Below are positions 15,559-40,808 of a stretch of DNA of 64,000 nt, one piece after another. Position 1 is the first letter of the stretch; every line of letters starts with the position of its first letter. Under the pieces are notes generated by a model. That model saw only the letters and a list, made by a program, of their open reading frames with translations. It had not been told where the DNA came from and did not search any database. Source of the stretch: Phyllosticta citribraziliensis (taxonomy: Eukaryota); contig NW_027117339.1 of assembly GCF_038025025.1 (NCBI RefSeq), forward strand, positions 124,001 through 188,000, given 5' to 3'. The translations under genes and the position numbers were made by a program.

Positions 15559-16775
15559 AGCGCGGCGTGTTGCTGTTGGACGCTGTCGGAGCTGGCCATG
15601 GCCGGCGTTTTTCCATCGCCATTGATCCTTTTGCCATCTTGTTTTTCAAGCTCTTTTCTTTTGTCAGGTGTTTGGGCTTTTTCTCGTGGGAGACTCGCGG
15701 GGTCGGGGTGTGTGTGCTTGGACATCGCGCATTACCTGGTATCTATCTAGACGGTCATCAAAAAATTACCCGACATAAACGGGGCATGGGGTCGGCTTCG
15801 GACGGATTCGTTTGGCTACAACTGGAAGCATCCATCCATGCATTCATCCTTACATTCATCTGTCTATCTCATTACTTTGCTCTGGGTATCACATACTTAC
15901 TGCGTCAGCTTCAGTGGTCTTGTGGCGTTGATGACGGTATGGTAGGGAATAGACGGCAATGTAAAGCTACTATTTAGCGAAGAGAAGAGAAGAGAAGGCA
16001 AGAGAATAGAAATAAGGGATATAAGGAACGTGGAGCAGACTTTTTAGATGGAATTTGTCCAGTCTCCATGGATGTACAGATTTACGTGCGTGTCTGCTCG
16101 CTAGGTACCGAGGTAGTTGTCTGCCAGCTAGCTGCACTTCTCGCTGCTGCTTACATGACTTGGAAAGTATTAAAGGTTGAAGTGTTTGCTACATTCATTA
16201 GGATAATAATCTAAGTAATTTGAGTGATTCAACTTCTTTAGTCCCTTCTCTACGAGCTCTCAACAAAAACCTTTTCCTGGTGACCCCCTGATGAAAAATT
16301 GTGTTTTAGAAGCTACTTCTATTATGTGCACCTGGACCTTAAGCGATGATGGCAGGAATTTCTTTTTAGGGTTATTATATTGTCTGTCTGTACCTGATTA
16401 AGATTTTAAAAGGTTGCTCAGTCATTACCTAAAGTGGCTACTCGCGGAAGACTGTCTCGCTGTCTCATTGCTGCCCGCAGTGATCGCTGAACACTTGACG
16501 ACGTCGGCCTACTCACTGAATGATAAACGACGTCCGGTTCAGTGATTCCAACCTGCACGTGCAGAGATAGTGTCATTTTTCAACCCAGACTGACGCACAT
16601 AGACTGTGGGTTTGCTTTGCTCGTCTTGATGGTTCGGTAGCCCGCCTCCATATGGGCGCTTCTTTTGCTGTGTGGCCGAAAGGGGGAGTTCTGTCCTCGT
16701 CGCCCAACGTCGAAAGACAGACGGCATTGTAGGTGCAGGACGAAATGATTTTGCACAAATTCTTCTTCATCCGAC

Positions 16776-18232
16776 TCACGCCGTCTCCCTCAAAACCCTC
16801 TCCGTCATCTCCACACTCAACCCCAAGTAATGCCGCGGATCGCACAGCCGCTCCGCCTCGTCCCTGCTCAGTCCAACCCTCCCATCTTCAACCAGCACAT
16901 CTGCCAACGCCCGCCCCTCCTCCCGCGCCTTCGCACACAGTTCGTACACCAAGTCGTGCGCGACCTGGCGCCCCAGCCGCCCCGCAACGGCCATCATGAC
17001 CGCCTCACTGACGACGCCGCCGGCGGTGATGTCGAGATTGCGCGCCATAGCCTCCGGGCGGACCTCGAGGCGGGCCAGGACGTCCTCGGTGTGGCGGAGA
17101 GCGGCGAGCGCGAGGCAGCACAGCTGCGGCAGGACGATCCACTCGACCTCCCACGGGCCGGTGCTGCGCTCGTGGTCGGCGACGACGGCGCCGGCCAGCG
17201 CGGCGCTGAGCTGCCGCGCCGTCGCCGCGCTCGCCACCACGTACGCGCTGCCGATCGGGTTGCGCTTCTGCGGCATGGTGCTGCTGGCGCCGCGCTCCGG
17301 GCCCGCCGGCTCGCGCACTTCGTCGACCTCCGTCTGCATCAGCAGCGCCACGTCGGTTGCGAATTTGGCGCACGTGCTGCTCAGCAGCGCGAGGAAGGAG
17401 CCGCTCTCGCTGATGTTGTCGCGCTCCGTGTGCCAGGCGATTGGCGGCGCCGCGAGCGAGAGCGAGGCCGCGAGGCGCGTTTGGCATTCGAGGGCGAGCG
17501 TGGGCGGCAGTGTTGCGAGGGTGCCGGCGGCGCCGCTGAACTCGAGGAGCAGGACCCGCTGCTGGAGCGACGAGAGGCGTGCCCGGTGGCGCGCGAACGT
17601 CGAGAGCAGGCGCGCGAGCTTGAAGCCGAGGGTCTGCGGGACGGCTTGCTGGAGGTTGGAGCGCGCGGCCATGGGCGTGTGCTTGTGCTCCTCTGCCAGT
17701 CTCCTCAAGTGCTTGATGATGCTTTCAAGCGACGTAGAGACTAGCTCGAAGGTGTCGCGCAGCTGGAGCGACGTCGCCGTGTCCGTCACGTCCTGCCCAG
17801 TGATTATGACGGATTGAGACTAAAAGGAGAGTCCGGAGAGCGTACCTGCGTCGTAGCCCCCCAGTGCGCCCACTCGCCCAGATTCTTGCCGGGCGCCGAC
17901 GCGTTCGTCATGGCCACGAGCTGCTTGACGACAGGCAAGACGGGATATCCAATCCGCTCAGTCTGCGCGCGGAGCTCATCCCAAGAGTAGAGCTCAAGGC
18001 GGCAGTGTGCTCCGATTGCAGAGGCCGCTTCTGCTGGAATCTGAGCAGAGTCAGTAATTGCAACTTGAGAGACTCGAGGCGGACTTGCGATTCCCAATTC
18101 CGCCTGCACTTTGGCGAGGTGGGCCTCAAAATCGAGGTAGTAGCTTGTTCGCTGCTTGTCGGACCAGATTGCCGCGCATTCAGGGGTTGAGAGAATGTTG
18201 CCAAAGATGACGGAGTCGGTGACGGAAGTCAT
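16776..18232 (-). CDS. Fumarase/adenylosuccinate lyase superfamily protein, 3-carboxy-cis,cis-muconate cycloisomerase (PcaB)-like
   Basis: SSTMPQKRNP signature, HWGATTQD, DHERSTGPW; GC-AG intron 18041-18088 and GT-AG intron 17793-17845. Confidence 0.85.
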
Positions 18233-29236: not shown

Positions 29237-29299
29237 TATTAGACAAGTTAGTATGGGGAAGTAAGAATAAGGTTGAAGATTATTTAATATGGGTGGAAG

Positions 29300-29600
29300 G
29301 CGGAGAACCTAACACTTTAGGAGAAGATACGGGGGGTAGAGAACTAGTTATCTAAGGGGAACGCACAAGAGGTGGAGAACTAGACACTTTAGGAGAAGAT
29401 ACGGGAGAGGTAGAGAACTAGTTATCTAAGGGGAACACACAGGAGGTGGAGAACTAGCTACTTATAGGGAACACATAGGAGGCAGAGAAGAAGGCCTTTC
29501 TAGAGAAGGTATAGGAGATAGAGAAGTGGAACTTGAAGGAGAACACATAGGAGCCGGAGAACTAGTTACTCCCAGAGAACATGCGGGAGGCGGAGAACGT
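29300..29600. repeat. Degenerate 18/36-bp minisatellite with GRGAAS core
   Basis: GAGAAC at 29303, 29339, 29375, 29413, 29449, 29557, 29593, with GAGAAG/GGGAAC at the intervening half-periods. Confidence 0.85.
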
Positions 29601-30574: not shown

Positions 30575-30740
30575 GGAGATCTAGGTTCAAGAAGAGGAGA
30601 AGTGCCCGCTTACGGAGAACACGTAGGAGCTAGAGAAGGCCATAGCTCGCAGAGATCTAGATTCGAGAAGAGGAGAAGCGCCGACTTATCGAGAACACGT
30701 AGGAGGTAGAGAAGGCTGGCATGGCCCATGGAGAACATGT
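30575..30740. repeat. Two ~76-bp direct repeats with GAGAAC/GAGAAG cores between divergent ORFs
   Basis: GAGATCTAG..GAAGAGGAGAAG..CTTA..GAGAACACGTAGGAG.TAGAGAAGGC at ~30575 and ~30651. Confidence 0.85.
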
Positions 30741-30871: not shown

Positions 30872-31471
30872 ATGCCATCTGGCCACCATAGCACCTCGAG
30901 CAGGCCCCACAAGAGGGCCAAGCACGATTCAGAAAAACGCCACGTCCTCGAAGACCTCGTATACAATTCACTCACACCAGTGGTTGACGGCGAGCTCGAG
31001 AAGCTCAGACTTGTCCAGGAGGCGACAGGCGATTTCCTTAGTCCACTACAGTTGGACTTTGGAGCCCTTGTTGGTGAGCTCCAAACCATCATCAAGGAAC
31101 GCCAACAATTTGCGAAAAAGACTGGAGACTTTGCGGGCGCCTTTAAGGACGTCGAAGCCATCACCACGACGCTTGCTCAGTGTTGGGCTGAGAAGGCTAG
31201 AATCAGGAGATCCTTAATGCTCTCCGGATGGGGTGACAGCTCTCCGGAACTTTCCCTTAAAGGAGAACTAAATGTTCTCCTCTCTAGAGAGAGCGCCAGT
31301 TCTCCGGAACTTCCCCTTCAGGGAGAACTAGGTGTTCTCTTCTCTAGAGAGAGCGCCAGTTCTCCAGAGCTATCCCTTAAGGGAGAACTAGTTGTTCTCT
31401 TCTCTAGAGAGAGTGCCAGTTCTCCACAACTTTCTTTCAAAGGAGAACTAGACCTTCTCTCCTCTAGATAG
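30872..31471 (+). CDS. Hypothetical protein, basic N-terminus, helical core, C-terminal 20-aa repeats
   Basis: Intact 199-aa ATG-started ORF; RPHKRAK NLS-like patch; SSPELSLKGEL.VL.SRESA-type unit x4. Confidence 0.5.
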   Translation: MPSGHHSTSSRPHKRAKHDSEKRHVLEDLVYNSLTPVVDGELEKLRLVQEATGDFLSPLQLDFGALVGELQTIIKERQQFAKKTGDFAGAFKDVEAITTTLAQCWAEKARIRRSLMLSGWGDSSPELSLKGELNVLLSRESASSPELPLQGELGVLFSRESASSPELSLKGELVVLFSRESASSPQLSFKGELDLLSSR

Positions 31472-31476
31472 AGCAC
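31237..31476. repeat. 60-bp tandem repeat x4, internally palindromic
   Basis: Exact 60-nt period over four sequence lines; units contain AGTTCTCC-N16-GGAGAACT, GAGAAC-N5-GTTCTC and TCTCTAGAGA. Confidence 0.95.
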
Positions 31477-33859: not shown

Positions 33860-34440
33860 AGGGGGGGTTGGAGCAGGGGAGAGTAGAGAGGGAGGGAGAG
33901 AAGAGGATCGAGTGTGTATGCAAGGAGCATTCATCTGGTGAGGCGTATGCGGAAGGCTTTTAATGGCTTCATCGCCCTCATTATCCTGCTCAGAGTCCCC
34001 GGCCTAGAACAGTCGGGGGAGAGGGGGGAGGGGGAGGAGAGAGAAGAGAGAAAAGAGAAAGAAACAGCGTATATGTGCAAGGAGCATTCATCTGCTAAGG
34101 TGCCTGCGGAAGACTTTTGATAAAGCCATCGCGCTTGACATCCTGCTCGGAGTCCCTGTCCAGGAGAGTCGGGGGAGAGAGGAGAGAGAGTCTGTGTGCA
34201 TGGAGCATTCGTCTGCTGGGGTGTCTGCGGAAGGCATTTAATGGCGTCATCTCCCTCATGATCCCGCTCGGAGTCCCCTACCCAGGACAGGAGGGGGAGG
34301 GGGAGAGAGGAGAGAGGAGGGTGAAAAGAGAAAGAAACAGCGTGTGTGTGCAAGGAGCATTCGTCTGCTGGGGTGTCTGCGGCAGGCATTTAATGGCGTC
34401 ATCTCCCTCATAGTCCTGCTCGGAGTCCCCTGTCCAGGAT
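33860..34440. repeat. Four 120-160 bp tandem modules (GA-rich tract plus conserved ~75-bp core with GGAGCATTC)
   Basis: Cores TGCAAGGAGCATTC.TCTG...TGCGGAAG...TCCTGCTCGGAGTCCC anchored at 33924, 34081, 34202, 34354; minus-strand reading DSEQDYEGDDAIKCLPQTPQQTNAPC repeats. Confidence 0.9.
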
Positions 34441-35490
34441 AGTTGGATGGTGCAGAAACACGCATCCAAGATGCTGGGCTTTCTGCCTGCAGCTTGAATG
34501 CTCCCTGTTACCCCCCGCCGGAATCCTCGGGCAAGACGATCGAGACCCGGTTCCAGTCATAAACGCGTCCCCGCATCGACATTCGCGGTAAGCGAGTTCT
34601 TCCGGTGCAAATCTACGGTCGTGTTGAATGTGCCTTGTCCAGTTCTTGAAAGGCATTTTTGTCTTGTCCCAGCTCAGGCGACATTGACCGCATCGTATTT
34701 TCTGGTCGGCAGCAGGACGATTGGCGACTGCTTGAAAAAAGTGTACACATTGGCTTAGTATACCAAGCTTCTCGGCATACGTACGGGCATCCTGAAGAGG
34801 TAACAGGATTATCGACTGCGTGCCCTTCTTGAGCAGGAAGCGCTGAGGGAAATCCTGCTCAAGCTGTTGTCTGTCGACATCAGCTGCTGAAATTCCAGCC
34901 ATCTTCCACATGAAGGTGGCATAGCAATATCCTTCCTCAATGTGGGCAATCAATCGCTTTGTTGTCGGAGGATCGCTGGAAAGCCTCATGTATATGTTGC
35001 TGGGGTTTTGGTAGACGAGAGGTTTCGGGGGTTCACCACCGCTCGTGGTGCGCTCTTCGATACGTTGGGTGTTTACCTGGGAATCTAACAGCTCGTCCAG
35101 CTCCTTGTCGTTGTATTGGGCGGTGACTTTGTCTTCAGCAGCAAGTGCTGCTGACCTCCGGGCCCTCTGTTCATATCTCGTCACTTCTGGTTGGACGGTG
35201 GCTTTCCTCTTCCGCCTTGGCCTTTTGCTCGCGGGTTCCGTTGAGTCAATGGGTTGCGTAGGCAGGACGAGCTGTTCTGCTTCCTGGACCTGGGCTGCCG
35301 GTGGTGGGATAGCACTTTGTTTGGCGGCTTGGTCTCGTCTCTGGGGCGCTTCACATGCCCGATCAATTTGCTCTAGAGCAGTGTGTAGCTCTTCTTCCTG
35401 CTCCGATGCGTAGTTACGGATGAATAATCTTCGTGAGGTCAGAAACCTCCCGGCTCCTCCTCGCTGGGGATCCAGTGGACTGTCATATTT
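34408..35490 (-). CDS. KilA-N/APSES-like domain plus zinc-finger protein, copy 2 (ends uncertain)
   Basis: EGYCYATFMWKMAGIS and LLPLQDARTYAEKLGI match the APSES ..NATQILKVAG and WIPL..AR.LA...GV pattern; CGQC..HIQH and CRC; KRPRRKRK NLS-like patch. Confidence 0.6.
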   Translation of the reverse strand, partial: KYDSPLDPQRGGAGRFLTSRRLFIRNYASEQEEELHTALEQIDRACEAPQRRDQAAKQSAIPPPAAQVQEAEQLVLPTQPIDSTEPASKRPRRKRKATVQPEVTRYEQRARRSAALAAEDKVTAQYNDKELDELLDSQVNTQRIEERTTSGGEPPKPLVYQNPSNIYMRLSSDPPTTKRLIAHIEEGYCYATFMWKMAGISAADVDRQQLEQDFPQRFLLKKGTQSIILLPLQDARTYAEKLGILSQCVHFFQAVANRPAADQKIRCGQCRLSWDKTKMPFKNWTRHIQHDRRFAPEELAYRECRCGDAFMTGTGSRSSCPRIPAGGNREHSSCRQKAQHLGCVFLHHPTILDRGLRAGL

Positions 35491-36200: not shown

Positions 36201-36560
36201 TCAATTCGAAGGGTAGCACTTGTTCCACCGCGGCTGTCCCTCTACACTGTCCTGTACATTCTGACAGCGGCGGGAGCATTCGTGCGGTTGAAGAGGTGCG
36301 TCTGGGGAGCATTCAAGCTCTGTCTCGCTCTGTCTCGCAACAGTGGACATCAGGGCGTAGTAGTTCCCATTCTTCGAAATGATTGGCTTGCCACGTTGGT
36401 GGGGTCTACCCTCCTCCTCTTGGAATTCTTCATCATCAATGCTGGTGTTTTCGTTGCCTGGATCAAATGGGTCATCACTATCATCCCCGATGCCAAGTAG
36501 CTCGTCCTCTCCAGTGGCCTCATACTGGTTTGCAGTCTGCTGTTGTGCCACTAAAGCAGC
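36201..36560 (-). pseudogene. Truncated third copy of the KilA-N-like family
   Basis: GRPHQRGKPIISKNGNYYAL vs copy 1 NRPYQQRKPIISKNRNYHAL, also similar at DNA level; similarity stops after this; same upstream GA-tract/GGAGCGTTC module. Confidence 0.6.
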
Positions 36561-37630
36561 AGCTCTGGTAGCCCTGCGGTTGGTTGGGAGAGAGAGAGAG
36601 AGAGAGTTTGTGTGTGTCCAGGGAGCGTTCGTCCAGTTGAAGGGTAATGCCTCTGCTGTATGATGCCCTGTAGGCCAAGTGACTCGTCCTATCTGGTGGG
36701 CTTGTACTGATCTTCGTAGGTAGGGTGTATTCCGTGGCTGCGCGCTTCTGTTTTTGGCGTGGATCTTTGCAGCTGTAGCGGCAGTCTGGTTGCCCTGCGG
36801 TTGGTTGGTGTATCTCCTGGGTGTCTTTAGTACCAGGCGTAGAGAGGTCGGGATAAGGAGGAGTAGCGTTGCTAAGAGTTGTATCTTGACGCCTCCTTTT
36901 GCTGTCTGCGGCTTGGATTTGGGTCCGGGCCGGGAGAGATAGCGTGACTTGAGTCTGTCGAGGGCTCAAAAGTGAGCCGCCAGGGAGTATTATGCGCTGG
37001 ATGGGTGCCCTTTGCTGCTTCGAAAATTTCGCGGCTTCTCCAAGCCCGGAATTACTCTGCCATGTGGGTTCCAGATCTCGAATCTCGAATGCTCCTCCCG
37101 CGTCCACCGTGGGAACAAACGGAAAAACCCCCCTGTACGCCTTGTCGGCTCTCGGCTGCTTCCTGGCCATTCCAGTATTTACCAGCGGAGCATCCCTGGT
37201 AAAGAGGTTCTCCTGGAATAGGCATTTCATCCACAACGATCTCCGTCCCCTGTGGTAGTGTTCGATGGACCACGCCGAGGGCATGTCAGGCACTCGCACT
37301 CCTGGACTCCTTGTGGCTTTTCCCATTCATTGGATGACTTTGGGTCCCTTGTTCGTTTTCTGGACATGCGAAGATATCGAGGATGACCAAAAAGGAATTG
37401 AGTGAGTTTTTGTTTTTGTCCGGTCCCCAGGGTATGCGAGTCTACGATCCGAGCCATGGGAAAGTCGTCAAGTGAGCCAGGGTTCATCAAACCCATCCAC
37501 AACACAAGAACCAACCCTCCAAACATCAACAGCGAGCAAATCAACAAGCACAACAACCTTACCCCAACAGCCGCCCTCGCTCTCTCACAAGCCGAGGGCC
37601 GCGCAGGTGGTCAAGGCGCCGCCAGACACG

Positions 37631-37638
37631 TATAAAAG
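37631..37638 (+). promoter_or_regulatory. TATA box upstream of the 157-bp duplication
   Basis: TATAAAAG followed by a CT-rich stretch. Confidence 0.4.
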
Positions 37639-37678
37639 GGCGATTCTCCTCCGCCCAACTCCTCTCCTTTGCAACAAC

Positions 37679-37992
37679 AACATGATCAGCCGCGTGAAGG
37701 TCCCCAGACCTGATGGCTGTGACACGCGGGTCAGGGCTGCCTCCCCCAAAGCCTGGGCGGGTGGGAAACCCCAGCGACGTTGGTGCCGTACCCGGGCGGC
37801 ACTGACGCGCTGGGGGGCATAATGCTGTGAATGTGAACATGATCAGCCGCGTGAGAGTCGTCGGACTTGATGGCTGTGACACGCGGGTCAGGGCTGCCTC
37901 CCCCAAAGCCCGGGCGGGTGGGAAACCCCAGTGATGTTGGTGCCGTACCCGGGCGGCATCGACAAGCTGGGGGGTACAATGCTGTGAATGTG
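37679..37992 (+). repeat. 2 x 157-bp tandem duplication, candidate structured RNA
   Basis: Copies start at 37679 and 37836 and differ at 15 positions; several self-complementary stems. Confidence 0.9.
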
Positions 37993-38728
37993 CTTGCTTG
38001 CTTGACTTGACCTTGTGCGTTTGGAGGTGGCGACGCGAGGGCGATGGAGGAGAGAGTGTGAGAGGGATGGAGCGGAGTCTCGAAGCTCGAAGGCAGCTCC
38101 TCTGATCGTATGTCTTGAGCGGATGTGCTTTGAGTTGGTCGGTGGTCGAGGGATTCGAGCAACAGGTGGACTCTGGTATTCAACAGACGTTAGGGAGCGT
38201 TTCTCCTCCGCCTTCAGACTTTCCATGCTCTTGTCACCTGGCAAATCAGTCCACGGCCGCAGCGTCAATCGCTTGTTCAACGACTCTTCATCTTCGCTTC
38301 AGAAAGTACTGCTCGAGGCCTGACTCCGTGATGACTACAGGCCCACACCGACTGACTGAGAAGCAGGGTCGCATTCGATGAGAAACCCCCATAAATTGAC
38401 GGCCATCCGCTCACAGATACACGAAACGTCTTGCGTCGGTCGTTGTCTCCCGCTTTTGTAGACGGCCGGGATGGCGTGCTCAGTGCGTTGCCGGTGAGGC
38501 GGGAGCGGGTCCGCTGCTCGATTCAGCGAGGCGGAGAGCTCTGGCCGCCGTCACCAACAACGTCATTTTTCATGCGTATGGTGAGAAGGCAGGAAGCCAG
38601 GTCATTCGCATCGCATTCCTTGATTTGGCGACTTCGATTGGTGCGTTGATTTATAGGCACGTCGGCCGGTCATTCTGAGATGTTGAGCCAAAGCTATCTG
38701 CGTGCGCTTGCTGCATCAACTCAACACC

Positions 38729-39661
38729 ATGGCGACATTTACGTATGACCTACCTTGACGCTCGTGGCTGGACTGCCGTCGAATGACTGACTTGAGTAGT
38801 AAAGACTCGTACGCCCACGGCACCTATGCCGCTCTCCGCCCGGCCTACCCTGATCATCTCTACGACAAAGTCATCAGCTACCACGAGGGACCGCGCACCA
38901 CAGCTCTCGACCTCGGCTGCGGTCCCGGCATCGTGACGCGAGCCGTGGCGTCCACCTTCCTTACCGTGACGGGCGTCGACCCATCGCCGGGCATGATATC
39001 GCAGGCAGAGCAGCTCACGGCACGCGACAGCTTCCCCAACGTGCGCTACCAACACGGCGCAGCCGAAGAGCTCAACTTTGCGCTCGACGGCAGCGTCGAC
39101 GCCGTGGTGTCGGGGGAGGCGGCGCACTGGTTCGACTACTCGCGGCTGTGGCCAGAGCTGCACCGGGTGCTGCGGCGCGAAGGCACCGTCGCCTTTTGGG
39201 GCTACGCAGACCCCGAGTTCGTCGACTACCCGCGCGCGACGGCGATTCTCAAGCGCTGGACCTTCTCCGACGACAAGGATGCCTTGGGCCCGTACTGGAG
39301 CCAGCCCGGGAAGAGGATCGTCGAAGGATTGTACCGCGACATTGTGCCTGACCCGCGGTACTTTGGGGACGTGCAGAGGATCGAGTACGAGCCCGGCACG
39401 TCAGGCCCGCGCAGCGGTAAGGGTGAAGTGGTGCTTAGTCGGACGGCAACGGTGGAGGAGTGGAAAGAATATATGCGGACGTGGAGCGGGTGTCATGCGT
39501 GGCAAGAGGCGCATCCGGAGCAGACCAAGAGGAGCGCGGGCGGGCCAGGCGATGTGATGGATGCGATATACGACGAGATGATGGAAGCCGAGGAGTGGAA
39601 GGCAGACCAACAGCTGGAGCTGGAGTGGGGAACGGGAGTGGTGATGGCTCGGCGGGTGTAG
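38729..39661 (+). CDS. SAM-dependent small-molecule methyltransferase (Tmt1/Crg1-like)
   Basis: MATFT|KDSYAHGTYAALRPAYP (intron 38743-38799); ALDLGCGPG, GVDPSPGMI, EAAHWFD, LGPYWSQPG. Confidence 0.85.
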
Positions 39662-40162: not shown

Positions 40163-40808
40163 ATGGCGTACGACAGCTCACAAGGCCAGGCCTCGACCAA
40201 CTACAAAGAAGCGTTCCAGCTCTTCGACAAGCGCGGCAGCGGCCGCGTTTCACTCGACTCGCTGGGCGACCTGCTGCGCGCCTGCGGCCAAAACCCCACC
40301 CTCGCCGAGATCAAGGAGCTGGAGAAGACGGCCGGCGGCGACTGTGAGTTCGCCCAAACAGCCCCTAAACCCACCAATCCTCCTCCAACTCCGCGCGAGC
40401 AAGGCCCAACTAACACAACTCTTTCGCGGGAATTCAGTCGACTTCGACACGTTCAGCAAGATCCTCAACCGGCCCGGCGGCTTCCGCGACCCGGGCGACA
40501 TCGACGAGTACTGCCGCGGCTTCGAGGTGTTCGACCAGAACCGGACGGGCTTCATCGGCGTCGGCCAGCTGCGCTACATCCTGACCAACCTGGGCGAGAA
40601 GATGAGCGACGACGAGGTCGACGAGCTGCTCAAGGCCGTCGACACCAGCTCGGGCGAGATTGCGTACAGAGGTGAGGCTGGCCCATTGCTATTACTACCA
40701 CCAGGAAGACGGATGATGGAGAGCCTGAAGGATGGATGGATAGAATGCGACTTTGTGCTAACGCGCCCTGCTCCGACAGATCTCGTCTCCACGATCCTCG
40801 CAAACTAG
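40163..40808 (+). CDS. Myosin light chain (Cdc4/Mlc1-like EF-hand protein)
   Basis: YKEAFQLFDKRG, LRACGQNPT, FEVFDQNRTGFIGVGQLRYILTNLGEKM; introns 40344-40437 and 40672-40779. Confidence 0.93.

Follow-up and report, generated by a model that had tools for sequence, protein, structure and literature searches.

In the 64,000-nt stretch of the Phyllosticta citribraziliensis genome analyzed here (forward-strand positions 124,001 to 188,000 of contig NW_027117339.1, assembly GCF_038025025.1; called the window, in whose own numbering all positions are given), a 157-nt unit stands twice in tandem upstream of a gene for a Tmt1-like S-adenosylmethionine (SAM) methyltransferase. Our preferred reading, to which we assign a probability of about 45%, is that the array encodes a lineage-restricted, + strand hairpin RNA module within an upstream non-coding transcript of this gene. 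A TATA box that is unique in the window and lies 42 nt upstream of the array, the asymmetry of folding between the two strands and the wobble-compatible changes between the copies point, independently of one another, to the + strand; the array is therefore read as the 5' end of a non-coding transcript of RNA polymerase II (Pol II). An earlier note on this DNA had put the unit forward as a candidate structured RNA or ribozyme under selection, and parts of that proposal survive below.

The tandem repeat is certainly real and beyond chance. Tandem Repeats Finder reported one array (37679-37992) of period 157 with 2.0 copies, 90% matches, no indels and a score of 523, and an ungapped alignment of the two units was identical in 142 of 157 columns, which bears out the earlier description of a 157-nt unit with 15 inter-copy differences. 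These differences (13 transitions and 2 transversions) fall at unit positions 20, 21, 25, 26, 28, 32, 76, 97, 100, 124, 125, 129, 130, 140 and 142; ten of them lie in the two clusters that had been pointed out before (20-32 and 124-130), and six are packed within 13 nt, as tightly as in 331 of 20,000 random placements. The copies share invariant runs of 43, 20 and 23 nt, which are not structured as RNA. The GC content of the unit is 63-66%, that of the window 57%. No third copy was found in the window by blastn (word size 7) or by R1, a covariance model built from the two window copies; besides these, the hairpin was matched on the reverse strand only (E 0.068). The exact 21-nt core pattern occurred in no stretch of the metagenome, viral and prokaryote contig collections, and when metagenome contigs were searched with the methyltransferase protein as guide, 35 stretches matched, none of them a relative.

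The repeat unit is non-coding. Its period is not divisible by 3; when the AUG at 37682 sets the frame, each difference apart from that at position 129 (ACG>ACA) alters a residue or a stop codon, and in copy 2 a TGA appears at codon 32 and the TAA is lost; and all frames between 37600 and 38740 give short products rich in Arg, Ser and Pro. On the - strand, a 206-residue open reading frame (ORF) that runs across both copies matched no Pfam family and had no relative, at 113-361 residues, in a collection of 5.8 billion proteins.

Known RNA families likewise gave no match of note. Rfam 15 at gathering scores returned nothing in the whole window, and at E <= 10 the region 36500-39000 returned only two chance-level matches (SAM-SAH, E 2.7; U6atac, E 8.3), both outside the units, one just outside and the other further upstream, and neither a ribozyme family. 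ARAGORN found no tRNA-like gene, there was no CCCTAA as a telomerase RNA template in 34-40 kb, and bacterial-type terminator-like sites (a class irrelevant here) numbered one against 1.6 expected. An H/ACA small nucleolar RNA (snoRNA) was rejected on comparison by eye with the consensus, since an H box is lacking and the 3' long hairpin has no pocket. Two systematic screens for structured fungal RNAs described 15 and 17 motifs, none of which, in the accessible parts of those papers, lies beside Tmt1-type genes or in tandem units (PMC5640933, PMC8216456). Titles and abstracts of the literature on Phyllosticta non-coding RNA mention no such element.

Folding of the units was strand-dependent. 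On the + strand the whole units reached -77.8 and -74.7 kcal/mol (z = -2.9 and -3.3), and in each case none of 200 dinucleotide shuffles did as well; on the - strand z was -1.3 and 0.05. Unit positions 91-137 form a single 47-nt hairpin of ~19-20 pairs, several of them G-U, with one bulge of 1-2 nt. Because of these G-U pairs, the repeat holds no exact DNA inverted repeat of 9 nt or longer. The copy 1 hairpin reached -38.3 kcal/mol (z = -7.4) on the + strand and -31.6 (z = -5.2) on the - strand, and that of copy 2 reached -32.8 (z = -5.6) and -19.8 (z = -2.1) respectively. Thus the inter-copy differences spared the hairpin on the + strand and damaged its counterpart on the - strand. Among 31,978 47-nt segments from both strands (mean -9.4, standard deviation 4.7), the copy 1 hairpin ranked first, and the long hairpin accounts for 0.84-0.89 of the ensemble (0.89 for the -38 kcal/mol hairpin of copy 1). 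Under DNA parameters the gap between the strands shrank (-21.0 vs -19.5 and -14.4 vs -10.3).

The smaller stems listed in the earlier note are present: ACAU/AUGU and CAGC/GCUG around a GAU/UGA internal loop are present in the copy 1 fold and in the consensus, the CGCGUG/CACGCG stem is used in the copy 2 fold, and hairpin 1 retains its five pairs in both copies through A-U>G-U and G-C>A-U changes. What that note called a distal loop (positions 123-130) is a loop in no computed fold; it is the 3' arm of the hairpin at 91-137.

Between the copies, pairing was preserved. The RNAalifold consensus has 50 pairs, none broken by the 15 differences, ten of which fall in eight of these pairs. Two pairs are changed on both sides (21-32, G-C>A-U; 100-129, C-G>U-A), and the other six on one side, all six remaining paired as G-U on the + strand only (pair 20-33, for example, changes from A-U to G-U). 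The five unpaired differences comprise three in loop 1 and those at positions 76 and 130. Since the structure had been chosen with both sequences in view, the result was calibrated by mutating copy 1 at random with the same 15 types of substitution. The consensus energy of -73.8 was reached by 8 of 300 such mutants on the + strand and by 83 of 300 on the - strand; in a repeat run on the + strand, 1 of 150 did as well. When copy 2 was placed on the copy 1 fold, 9 of 400 mutants were as good on the + strand and 97 of 400 on the - strand, and for copy 1 on the copy 2 fold the counts were 38 and 29 of 400. The preservation of structure thus exceeds chance only modestly. The selection on structure claimed earlier holds in the form of selection-like preservation of RNA pairs on the + strand, not as selection on a global fold.

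The same test was applied as a control to nine copy pairs from five other arrays of the region. Five of these pairs (D8, D4 twice, D2 and D3) gave no signal, with z near 0 and 20-123 of 150 random mutants as good on the + strand. Therefore the pair-preservation signal is not a by-product of the method. The remaining four pairs are taken up below.

Information on relatives and on transcription came from assembled contigs only, of runs X1, X2, X4 and X6 from four studies, and such contigs show neither strand nor ends. Only what the contigs cover is used as evidence; gaps in the coverage by X2 and X6, like all figures of depth, carry no weight here. The tandem unit is present in two related organisms, by contigs that bridge the unit junction; the organisms behind X6 (C) and X4 (B) may be very close relatives. 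The X6 contig (37737-37896) includes the copy 1 hairpin and has two other letters in 160, while the X6 contigs from the downstream intergenic sequence showed 10 substitutions and 4 gaps in 203, 20 and 15 in 168, and 18 and 3 in 179 (5-12% substitutions), and a coding contig one difference in 131. X4 holds more diverged copies on two contigs, placed from positions and distances to the contig ends: the first (~37582-37741) carries the unchanged TATA box and the unit start, and the second (~37777-37898) crosses the unit junction. X4 differences are counted among those listed, at more than ~30 nt from contig ends and outside the unit core. Two X4 variants of hairpin 1 were seen, one with the pairs G-U, A-U, G-C, U-A and C-G around a UUCG loop, and one with G-U, G-C, G-U, U-A and C-G around CCCG, the latter with pair 21-32 back to G-C and pair 22-31 turned to G-U. 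Both keep 5 of 5 pairs. The hairpin 1 stem is thus kept in all four variants, even though the two copies disagree at 6 of the 14 hairpin positions.

Data sets with processed transcripts contain the repeat. X1 and X2, from two studies, each contain a contig that skips the 57-nt GT..AG intron of the methyltransferase gene, though neither run is on record as RNA. The X1 contigs span 36900-39300, with breaks only at stretches common to both units, where they overlap, and one of them joins 37881-38742 to the spliced methyltransferase, a contig not being proof of a single molecule or of strand. Separately, two X2 methyltransferase contigs meet at 39065-39071, and X4 has a 68-nt skip with non-canonical ends at 39016-39085; these may be an isoform or an assembly branch within the coding region.

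The TATAAAA at 37631 has no second match among the 128 kb that both strands of the window make up, where shuffles average 1.01; it had been placed ~50 nt upstream in the earlier note and indeed stands just before unit 1, on the + strand and outside the duplication. Between the box and unit 1 lie a C/T-rich tract and then a CAACAAC leader (37638-37678). The five CTTG motifs directly 3' of unit 2 (37993-38015, 5 motifs in 23 nt) reach a density, at least four per 30 nt, that neither strand of the window shows anywhere else. As a lead only, they resemble the Nab3-type termination motifs of budding yeast. From the repeat to the methyltransferase ATG the distance is 740-1050 bp, and the TATA box stands ~1.1 kb upstream of the coding start; 20 ATGs stand between 37665 and that start. 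The coordinates are collected in the table.

Table. Features of the 157-nt array and its surroundings (window coordinates).
Feature	Position	Strand	Remarks
Unit 1	37679..37835	+	Tandem Repeats Finder, alignment, model R1 193.8 bits
Unit 2	37836..37992	+	15 differences vs unit 1; model R1 190.5 bits
Hairpin 1, unit 1	37698..37711	+	5-bp stem, variable 4-nt loop
Hairpin 1, unit 2	37855..37868	+	5 pairs kept
Long hairpin, unit 1	37769..37815	+	7 bp, bulge, 12 bp, 6-nt loop
Long hairpin, unit 2	37926..37972	+	Pair 100-129 C-G>U-A vs unit 1
TATA box TATAAAA	37631..37637	+	42 nt before unit 1; putative promoter
Five CTTG motifs	37993..38015	+	Directly 3' of unit 2; reported by Tandem Repeats Finder as an 8-nt repeat
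Tmt1-like SAM methyltransferase gene	38730..39661	+	ATG 38730, intron 38743-38799, stop 39661

On this evidence we propose the following. A + strand Pol II transcript would start ~30-50 nt behind the TATA box at 37631, and each 157-nt unit would be one module of it, the selected feature being RNA secondary structure: a very stable 47-nt hairpin plus a small 5-bp hairpin whose loop varies freely. The remaining ~90 nt of each unit appear conserved in sequence and are not detectably structured. With 20 AUGs ahead of the methyltransferase start, the transcript could not serve as a leader for translation and its read-through form would not be decoded; it is therefore taken to act as RNA. The long hairpins would most likely serve as double-stranded RNA sites that are bound or cut by an enzyme of the RNase III or Dicer type. 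This would yield small RNAs or fix where a short upstream RNA ends that lies across the promoter region of the Tmt1-like gene, and through it the neighboring methyltransferase gene might be affected.

A search of the window for antisense targets of the hairpin arms gave one site, at 40489, with 2 mismatches in 20, which is about chance level. The site (40489-40508) lies in a gene for an EF-hand protein and has 90% identity over 20 nt to unit 2 positions 112-131 (blastn E 0.026), which make up the apex and 3' arm of the long hairpin. On the - strand, a TATAAA at 38651-38656, 75 nt upstream of the methyltransferase ATG, points towards the repeat and may drive an antisense or divergent transcript.

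Several findings weigh against the hairpin RNA module: i) as the earlier note had cautioned, two copies give weak covariation evidence, and with two copies plus fragments from relatives the calibrated p is only ~0.02-0.03, while at least two compensatory pairs also arose in 20 of 300 random mutants; ii) the four control pairs from the 60-nt array at 31237-31474 kept a hairpin on both strands, with 0-3 of 150 mutants as good for several of them; iii) pair 98-130, formed in the copy 1 fold, is missing from copy 2 and from X4, which sets position 130 to G; iv) unit positions 1-90 folded no better than shuffles, 168 of 200 of which did as well in one copy (z = +1.1) and 51 of 200 in the other (z = -0.5), and with the excess stability confined to the 47-nt hairpin the "structured RNA" reduces to two hairpins; v) X4 changes at unit positions 5, 146, 151, 152 and 155 disrupt the G.A/A.G core and three closing-stem pairs; vi) the junction-proximal parts of X4 carry at least 13 substitutions and 1 indel in ~122 nt, about the rate of the flanks; vii) the runs containing the repeat are not on record as RNA, and their contigs show neither strand nor ends; viii) the X2 contig 37606-37804 covers the TATA box itself, so that a start site behind the box fits only if other transcripts or DNA contribute; ix) the repeat sits in an 11-kb stretch that lacks recognizable genes and holds six tandem arrays, where duplication is commonplace. 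In the comparison with shuffled controls, then, the whole units and the long hairpin stood out and positions 1-90 did not, and of the 157-nt global fold envisaged earlier there remain one long and one small hairpin. The closing stem with its GAU/UGA loop, another element of that fold, does not withstand the X4 changes.

The main rival is a neutral duplication of minisatellite type in repeat-prone intergenic DNA, the hairpin being an incidental imperfect palindrome. This we consider rather unlikely, yet it has much of the setting on its side. The stretch at ~27.3-38.7 kb, preceded by a gene for a Cys/Met pyridoxal-phosphate enzyme and slightly lower in GC (50-57%), yielded no Pfam family for any of 13 ORFs tested, and two ORFs flanking the repeat upstream scored 873 and 2019 in the Atlas, where known families score 2300, with no usable match. 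Six distinct tandem arrays (periods 17, 36/74, 76, 60, 121/273 and 157) crowd between 27.5 and 38 kb, and their inter-copy identities of 71-96% bracket the 90% of the 157-nt repeat. Tandem duplication being common in the neighborhood, the prior for a neutral origin is higher. The palindrome may have favored replication slippage, and pair preservation at p of only ~0.02-0.03 would then be a small-sample effect joined to transition bias; the lack of structure in the 5' 90 nt and the divergence of the X4 unit edges at roughly the flank rate also fit. Against such neutrality stand the rank of the copy 1 hairpin as the extreme of all 31,978 segments, its retention by copy 2 on the + strand only, the survival of the hairpin 1 stem in every variant, the contrast in X6 between 2 differences per 160 nt of the repeat and 5-12% substitutions in the downstream intergenic DNA, the unique TATA box just upstream, and the five control pairs from four other arrays that show no comparable signal.

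A regulatory element acting as DNA is improbable. Here the duplicated sites would be GC-rich, partly palindromic targets of a factor (GGGCGG-like, CCG..CGG), and the array would serve the Tmt1-like gene, or else a divergent transcript, as a tandem module of enhancer or promoter type. The GC-rich unit, with long invariant runs that are unstructured as RNA, would suit this role, as would the distance of the array from the methyltransferase ATG, and fungal promoter tandem repeats that raise expression are known. On the other hand, factor sites need no G-U-compatible changes, whereas the six one-sided changes pair on the + strand only, and two pairs, 12 and 29 nt apart, are changed on both sides. 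Moreover, the DNA holds no exact inverted repeat of at least 9 nt, the strand asymmetry shrinks under DNA parameters as expected if RNA is the selected form, and the TATA box lies outside the duplication.

It is more doubtful still that the array represents a new class of modular structured RNA, lineage-restricted and made as a short Pol II transcript of two 157-nt modules (in relatives perhaps more), that controls the Tmt1-like gene in cis. The unpaired conserved 5' core would in that case bind a factor or a metabolite, and both hairpins would be its scaffold. If true, this would be a fungal riboregulator unlike the thiamine pyrophosphate (TPP) riboswitch. To our knowledge, TPP is the only riboswitch class known in eukaryotes.

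That the units are two box C/D-like snoRNA genes is very improbable. AUGAUCA and GUGA at the unit ends stand where boxes C and D would be and can pair as G.A, A.G and U.U followed by C-G and A-U (with a flipped G-C pair) next to a 4-bp terminal stem, and a TATA promoter with tandem units would fit fungal snoRNA genes. The consensus sequences are RUGAUGA for box C and CUGA for box D. Against these, both copies agree at 6 of 7 and 3 of 4 positions respectively; no 3-nt bulge is left if the 4-bp stem forms; X4 changes box C (U->G) and box D (GA->AG); the interior, at 135 nt, greatly exceeds that of typical C/D RNAs in length and in pairing; and no Rfam snoRNA family matched at E <= 10 in 36500-39000.

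The self-cleaving, satellite-like RNA multimer with a loop-loop contact that had been suggested earlier is unsupported, and we hold it to be scarcely credible. Its head-to-tail layout is real, and loop 1 has a complement within positions 124-128, of 3 nt in copy 1 and of 4 nt in copy 2. However, the would-be partner bases at 124-128 are paired within the long hairpin (0.84-0.89 of the ensemble; 0.89 for that of copy 1 at -38 kcal/mol), and the proposed covariation appears to fail in X4, where loop 1 reads UUCG or CCCG while the one 124-128 segment seen is as in copy 1, the assignment of contigs to units being presumed from position. The earlier statement that no known catalytic core is recognizable agrees with Rfam 15, whose ribozyme families gave no match in 36500-39000 at E <= 10, nor in the whole window at gathering scores. 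A hammerhead-like CUGAUGG..GAAA differs from the invariant hammerhead core, hairpin 1 takes up its CU in pairs, and in copy 2 the string begins with U. There are only two copies, with none further in 64 kb and no match in the viral, metagenome and prokaryote collections, and X1 contigs cross every position of the repeat, so that intact sequence exists, cleavage not being thereby absent.

Finally, two small protein genes, one of 46 codons from the AUG at 37682 and one of 31 from that at 37839, with a fungal promoter and leader (TATA box, C/T tract, CAACAAC, ATG with A at -3) and a peptide that would have a variable stretch between conserved parts, can be set aside as scarcely conceivable in view of the altered codons, early TGA and lost TAA described above, the Arg/Gly/Ala-rich peptides, such as GC-rich non-coding DNA gives, and the lack of any relative of the overlapping ORF.

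Returning to the hairpin RNA module, its nearest known counterparts appear to be the fungal loci of microRNA-like hairpin small RNAs (milRNAs), which have been re-assessed under explicit criteria (PMC9757828). By those in the accessible part of that paper, the 47-nt stem-loop of each unit has neither secondary stems nor large loops, and its context is intergenic, free of transposons, coding sequence and Rfam RNAs, with copy number checked in the window. The resemblance extends to an intergenic stem-loop free of side stems or large internal loops, wobble pairs that set the strand, a putative Pol II-type promoter and two hairpins in one array. It may extend to conservation in related genomes, with at most 2 differences per 160 nt in the X6 contig over the copy 1 hairpin and diverged copies in X4, in organisms that may be very close relatives. 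The locus differs in that the foldback of the unit, at 47 nt (19-20 pairs), is at the short end, that ~110 nt per unit outside the hairpin are conserved in sequence, and that it is known here from sequence alone, where milRNA loci are defined by a small-RNA read pattern.

The SRG1-SER3 locus is reportedly a case in which an upstream transcript represses the gene downstream. Upstream non-coding or long undecoded transcript isoforms (LUTIs) that repress a downstream gene have been described (PMC8153250; bioRxiv 10.1101/2023.04.27.538572), and the accessible parts of these sources allow a comparison: the present locus may resemble them in its distal TATA box ~1.1 kb upstream, its 20 upstream AUGs and a contig joining the repeat to the spliced methyltransferase. 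The known cases are independent of a repeated hairpin module, and the present locus is likened to them from contigs and sequence. With arrays of box C/D snoRNAs the units have in common a terminal stem with a G.A/A.G/U.U core at their ends and a tandem arrangement behind a TATA box, but the boxes are imperfect and changed in X4, the interior is long and paired, and Rfam gave no match. Satellite and retrozyme RNAs (hammerhead, Varkud satellite) likewise have head-to-tail units of ~150 nt and a drawable loop-loop complementarity; in contrast to them the locus lacks an Rfam catalytic core, has two genomic copies, keeps the supposed loop inside a stem, and is nuclear and GC-rich. Among fungal promoter repeats, those upstream of cyp51A change expression and confer azole resistance. 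Like these, the array lies upstream of a gene and is duplicated in tandem within the size range of 30-160 bp; it differs in being a 157-nt duplication behind a TATA box and not across it, found under three organism labels and with preservation of pairs of the RNA type.

The neighboring gene itself is of the Tmt1 type. Its product carries a Methyltransf_11 domain (Pfam, 1.6e-22), its best solved relative is yeast trans-aconitate 3-methyltransferase (PDB 3g5t, 4.5e-42), and its best database relatives are from Phyllosticta citrichinensis (96% identical) and P. capitalensis (81%), as suits a Phyllosticta-like Dothideomycete; the GC content of the window likewise suits a filamentous ascomycete. 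The ORF listed for it (ATG 38783) begins within the intron, while the spliced contigs place the ATG at 38730, in a first exon of 13 nt that is followed by the GT..AG intron with a CTGAC branch site.

Elsewhere in the window, copies within the 273-nt and 121-nt arrays (33866-34443) are spaced by exactly 157 nt (33866>34023, 33904>34061), which is probably a coincidence, since blastn showed no similarity to the unit. The 60-nt array at 31237-31474 (4.0 copies, 84% matches) has a strong unit hairpin (-30.2 kcal/mol at 31321-31367) and has a GAGAAC-type motif in common with the arrays at 29298-29589 and 30576-30716. At 17153-17240, GC-rich sequence with several open frames (ORFs 16749-17819) holds clustered local folds of great stability on both strands, reaching -34.8 kcal/mol per 47 nt.

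If real, the element would add one more, lineage-restricted case to the hairpin or structured non-coding RNA loci already known next to genes, and would open no new category. Should the repeat instead be a neutral minisatellite, it would serve as a caution, since "compensatory" patterns between two copies reach only p ~0.02. If the hairpins are selected as RNA, on the other hand, they would mark a non-coding RNA locus that has its own promoter and no annotation so far, in a genus to which citrus pathogens belong. Filamentous fungi have few known structured non-coding RNAs, and the array would then offer a testable case of a hairpin small-RNA precursor or of a regulatory transcript upstream of a gene for a metabolic methyltransferase.

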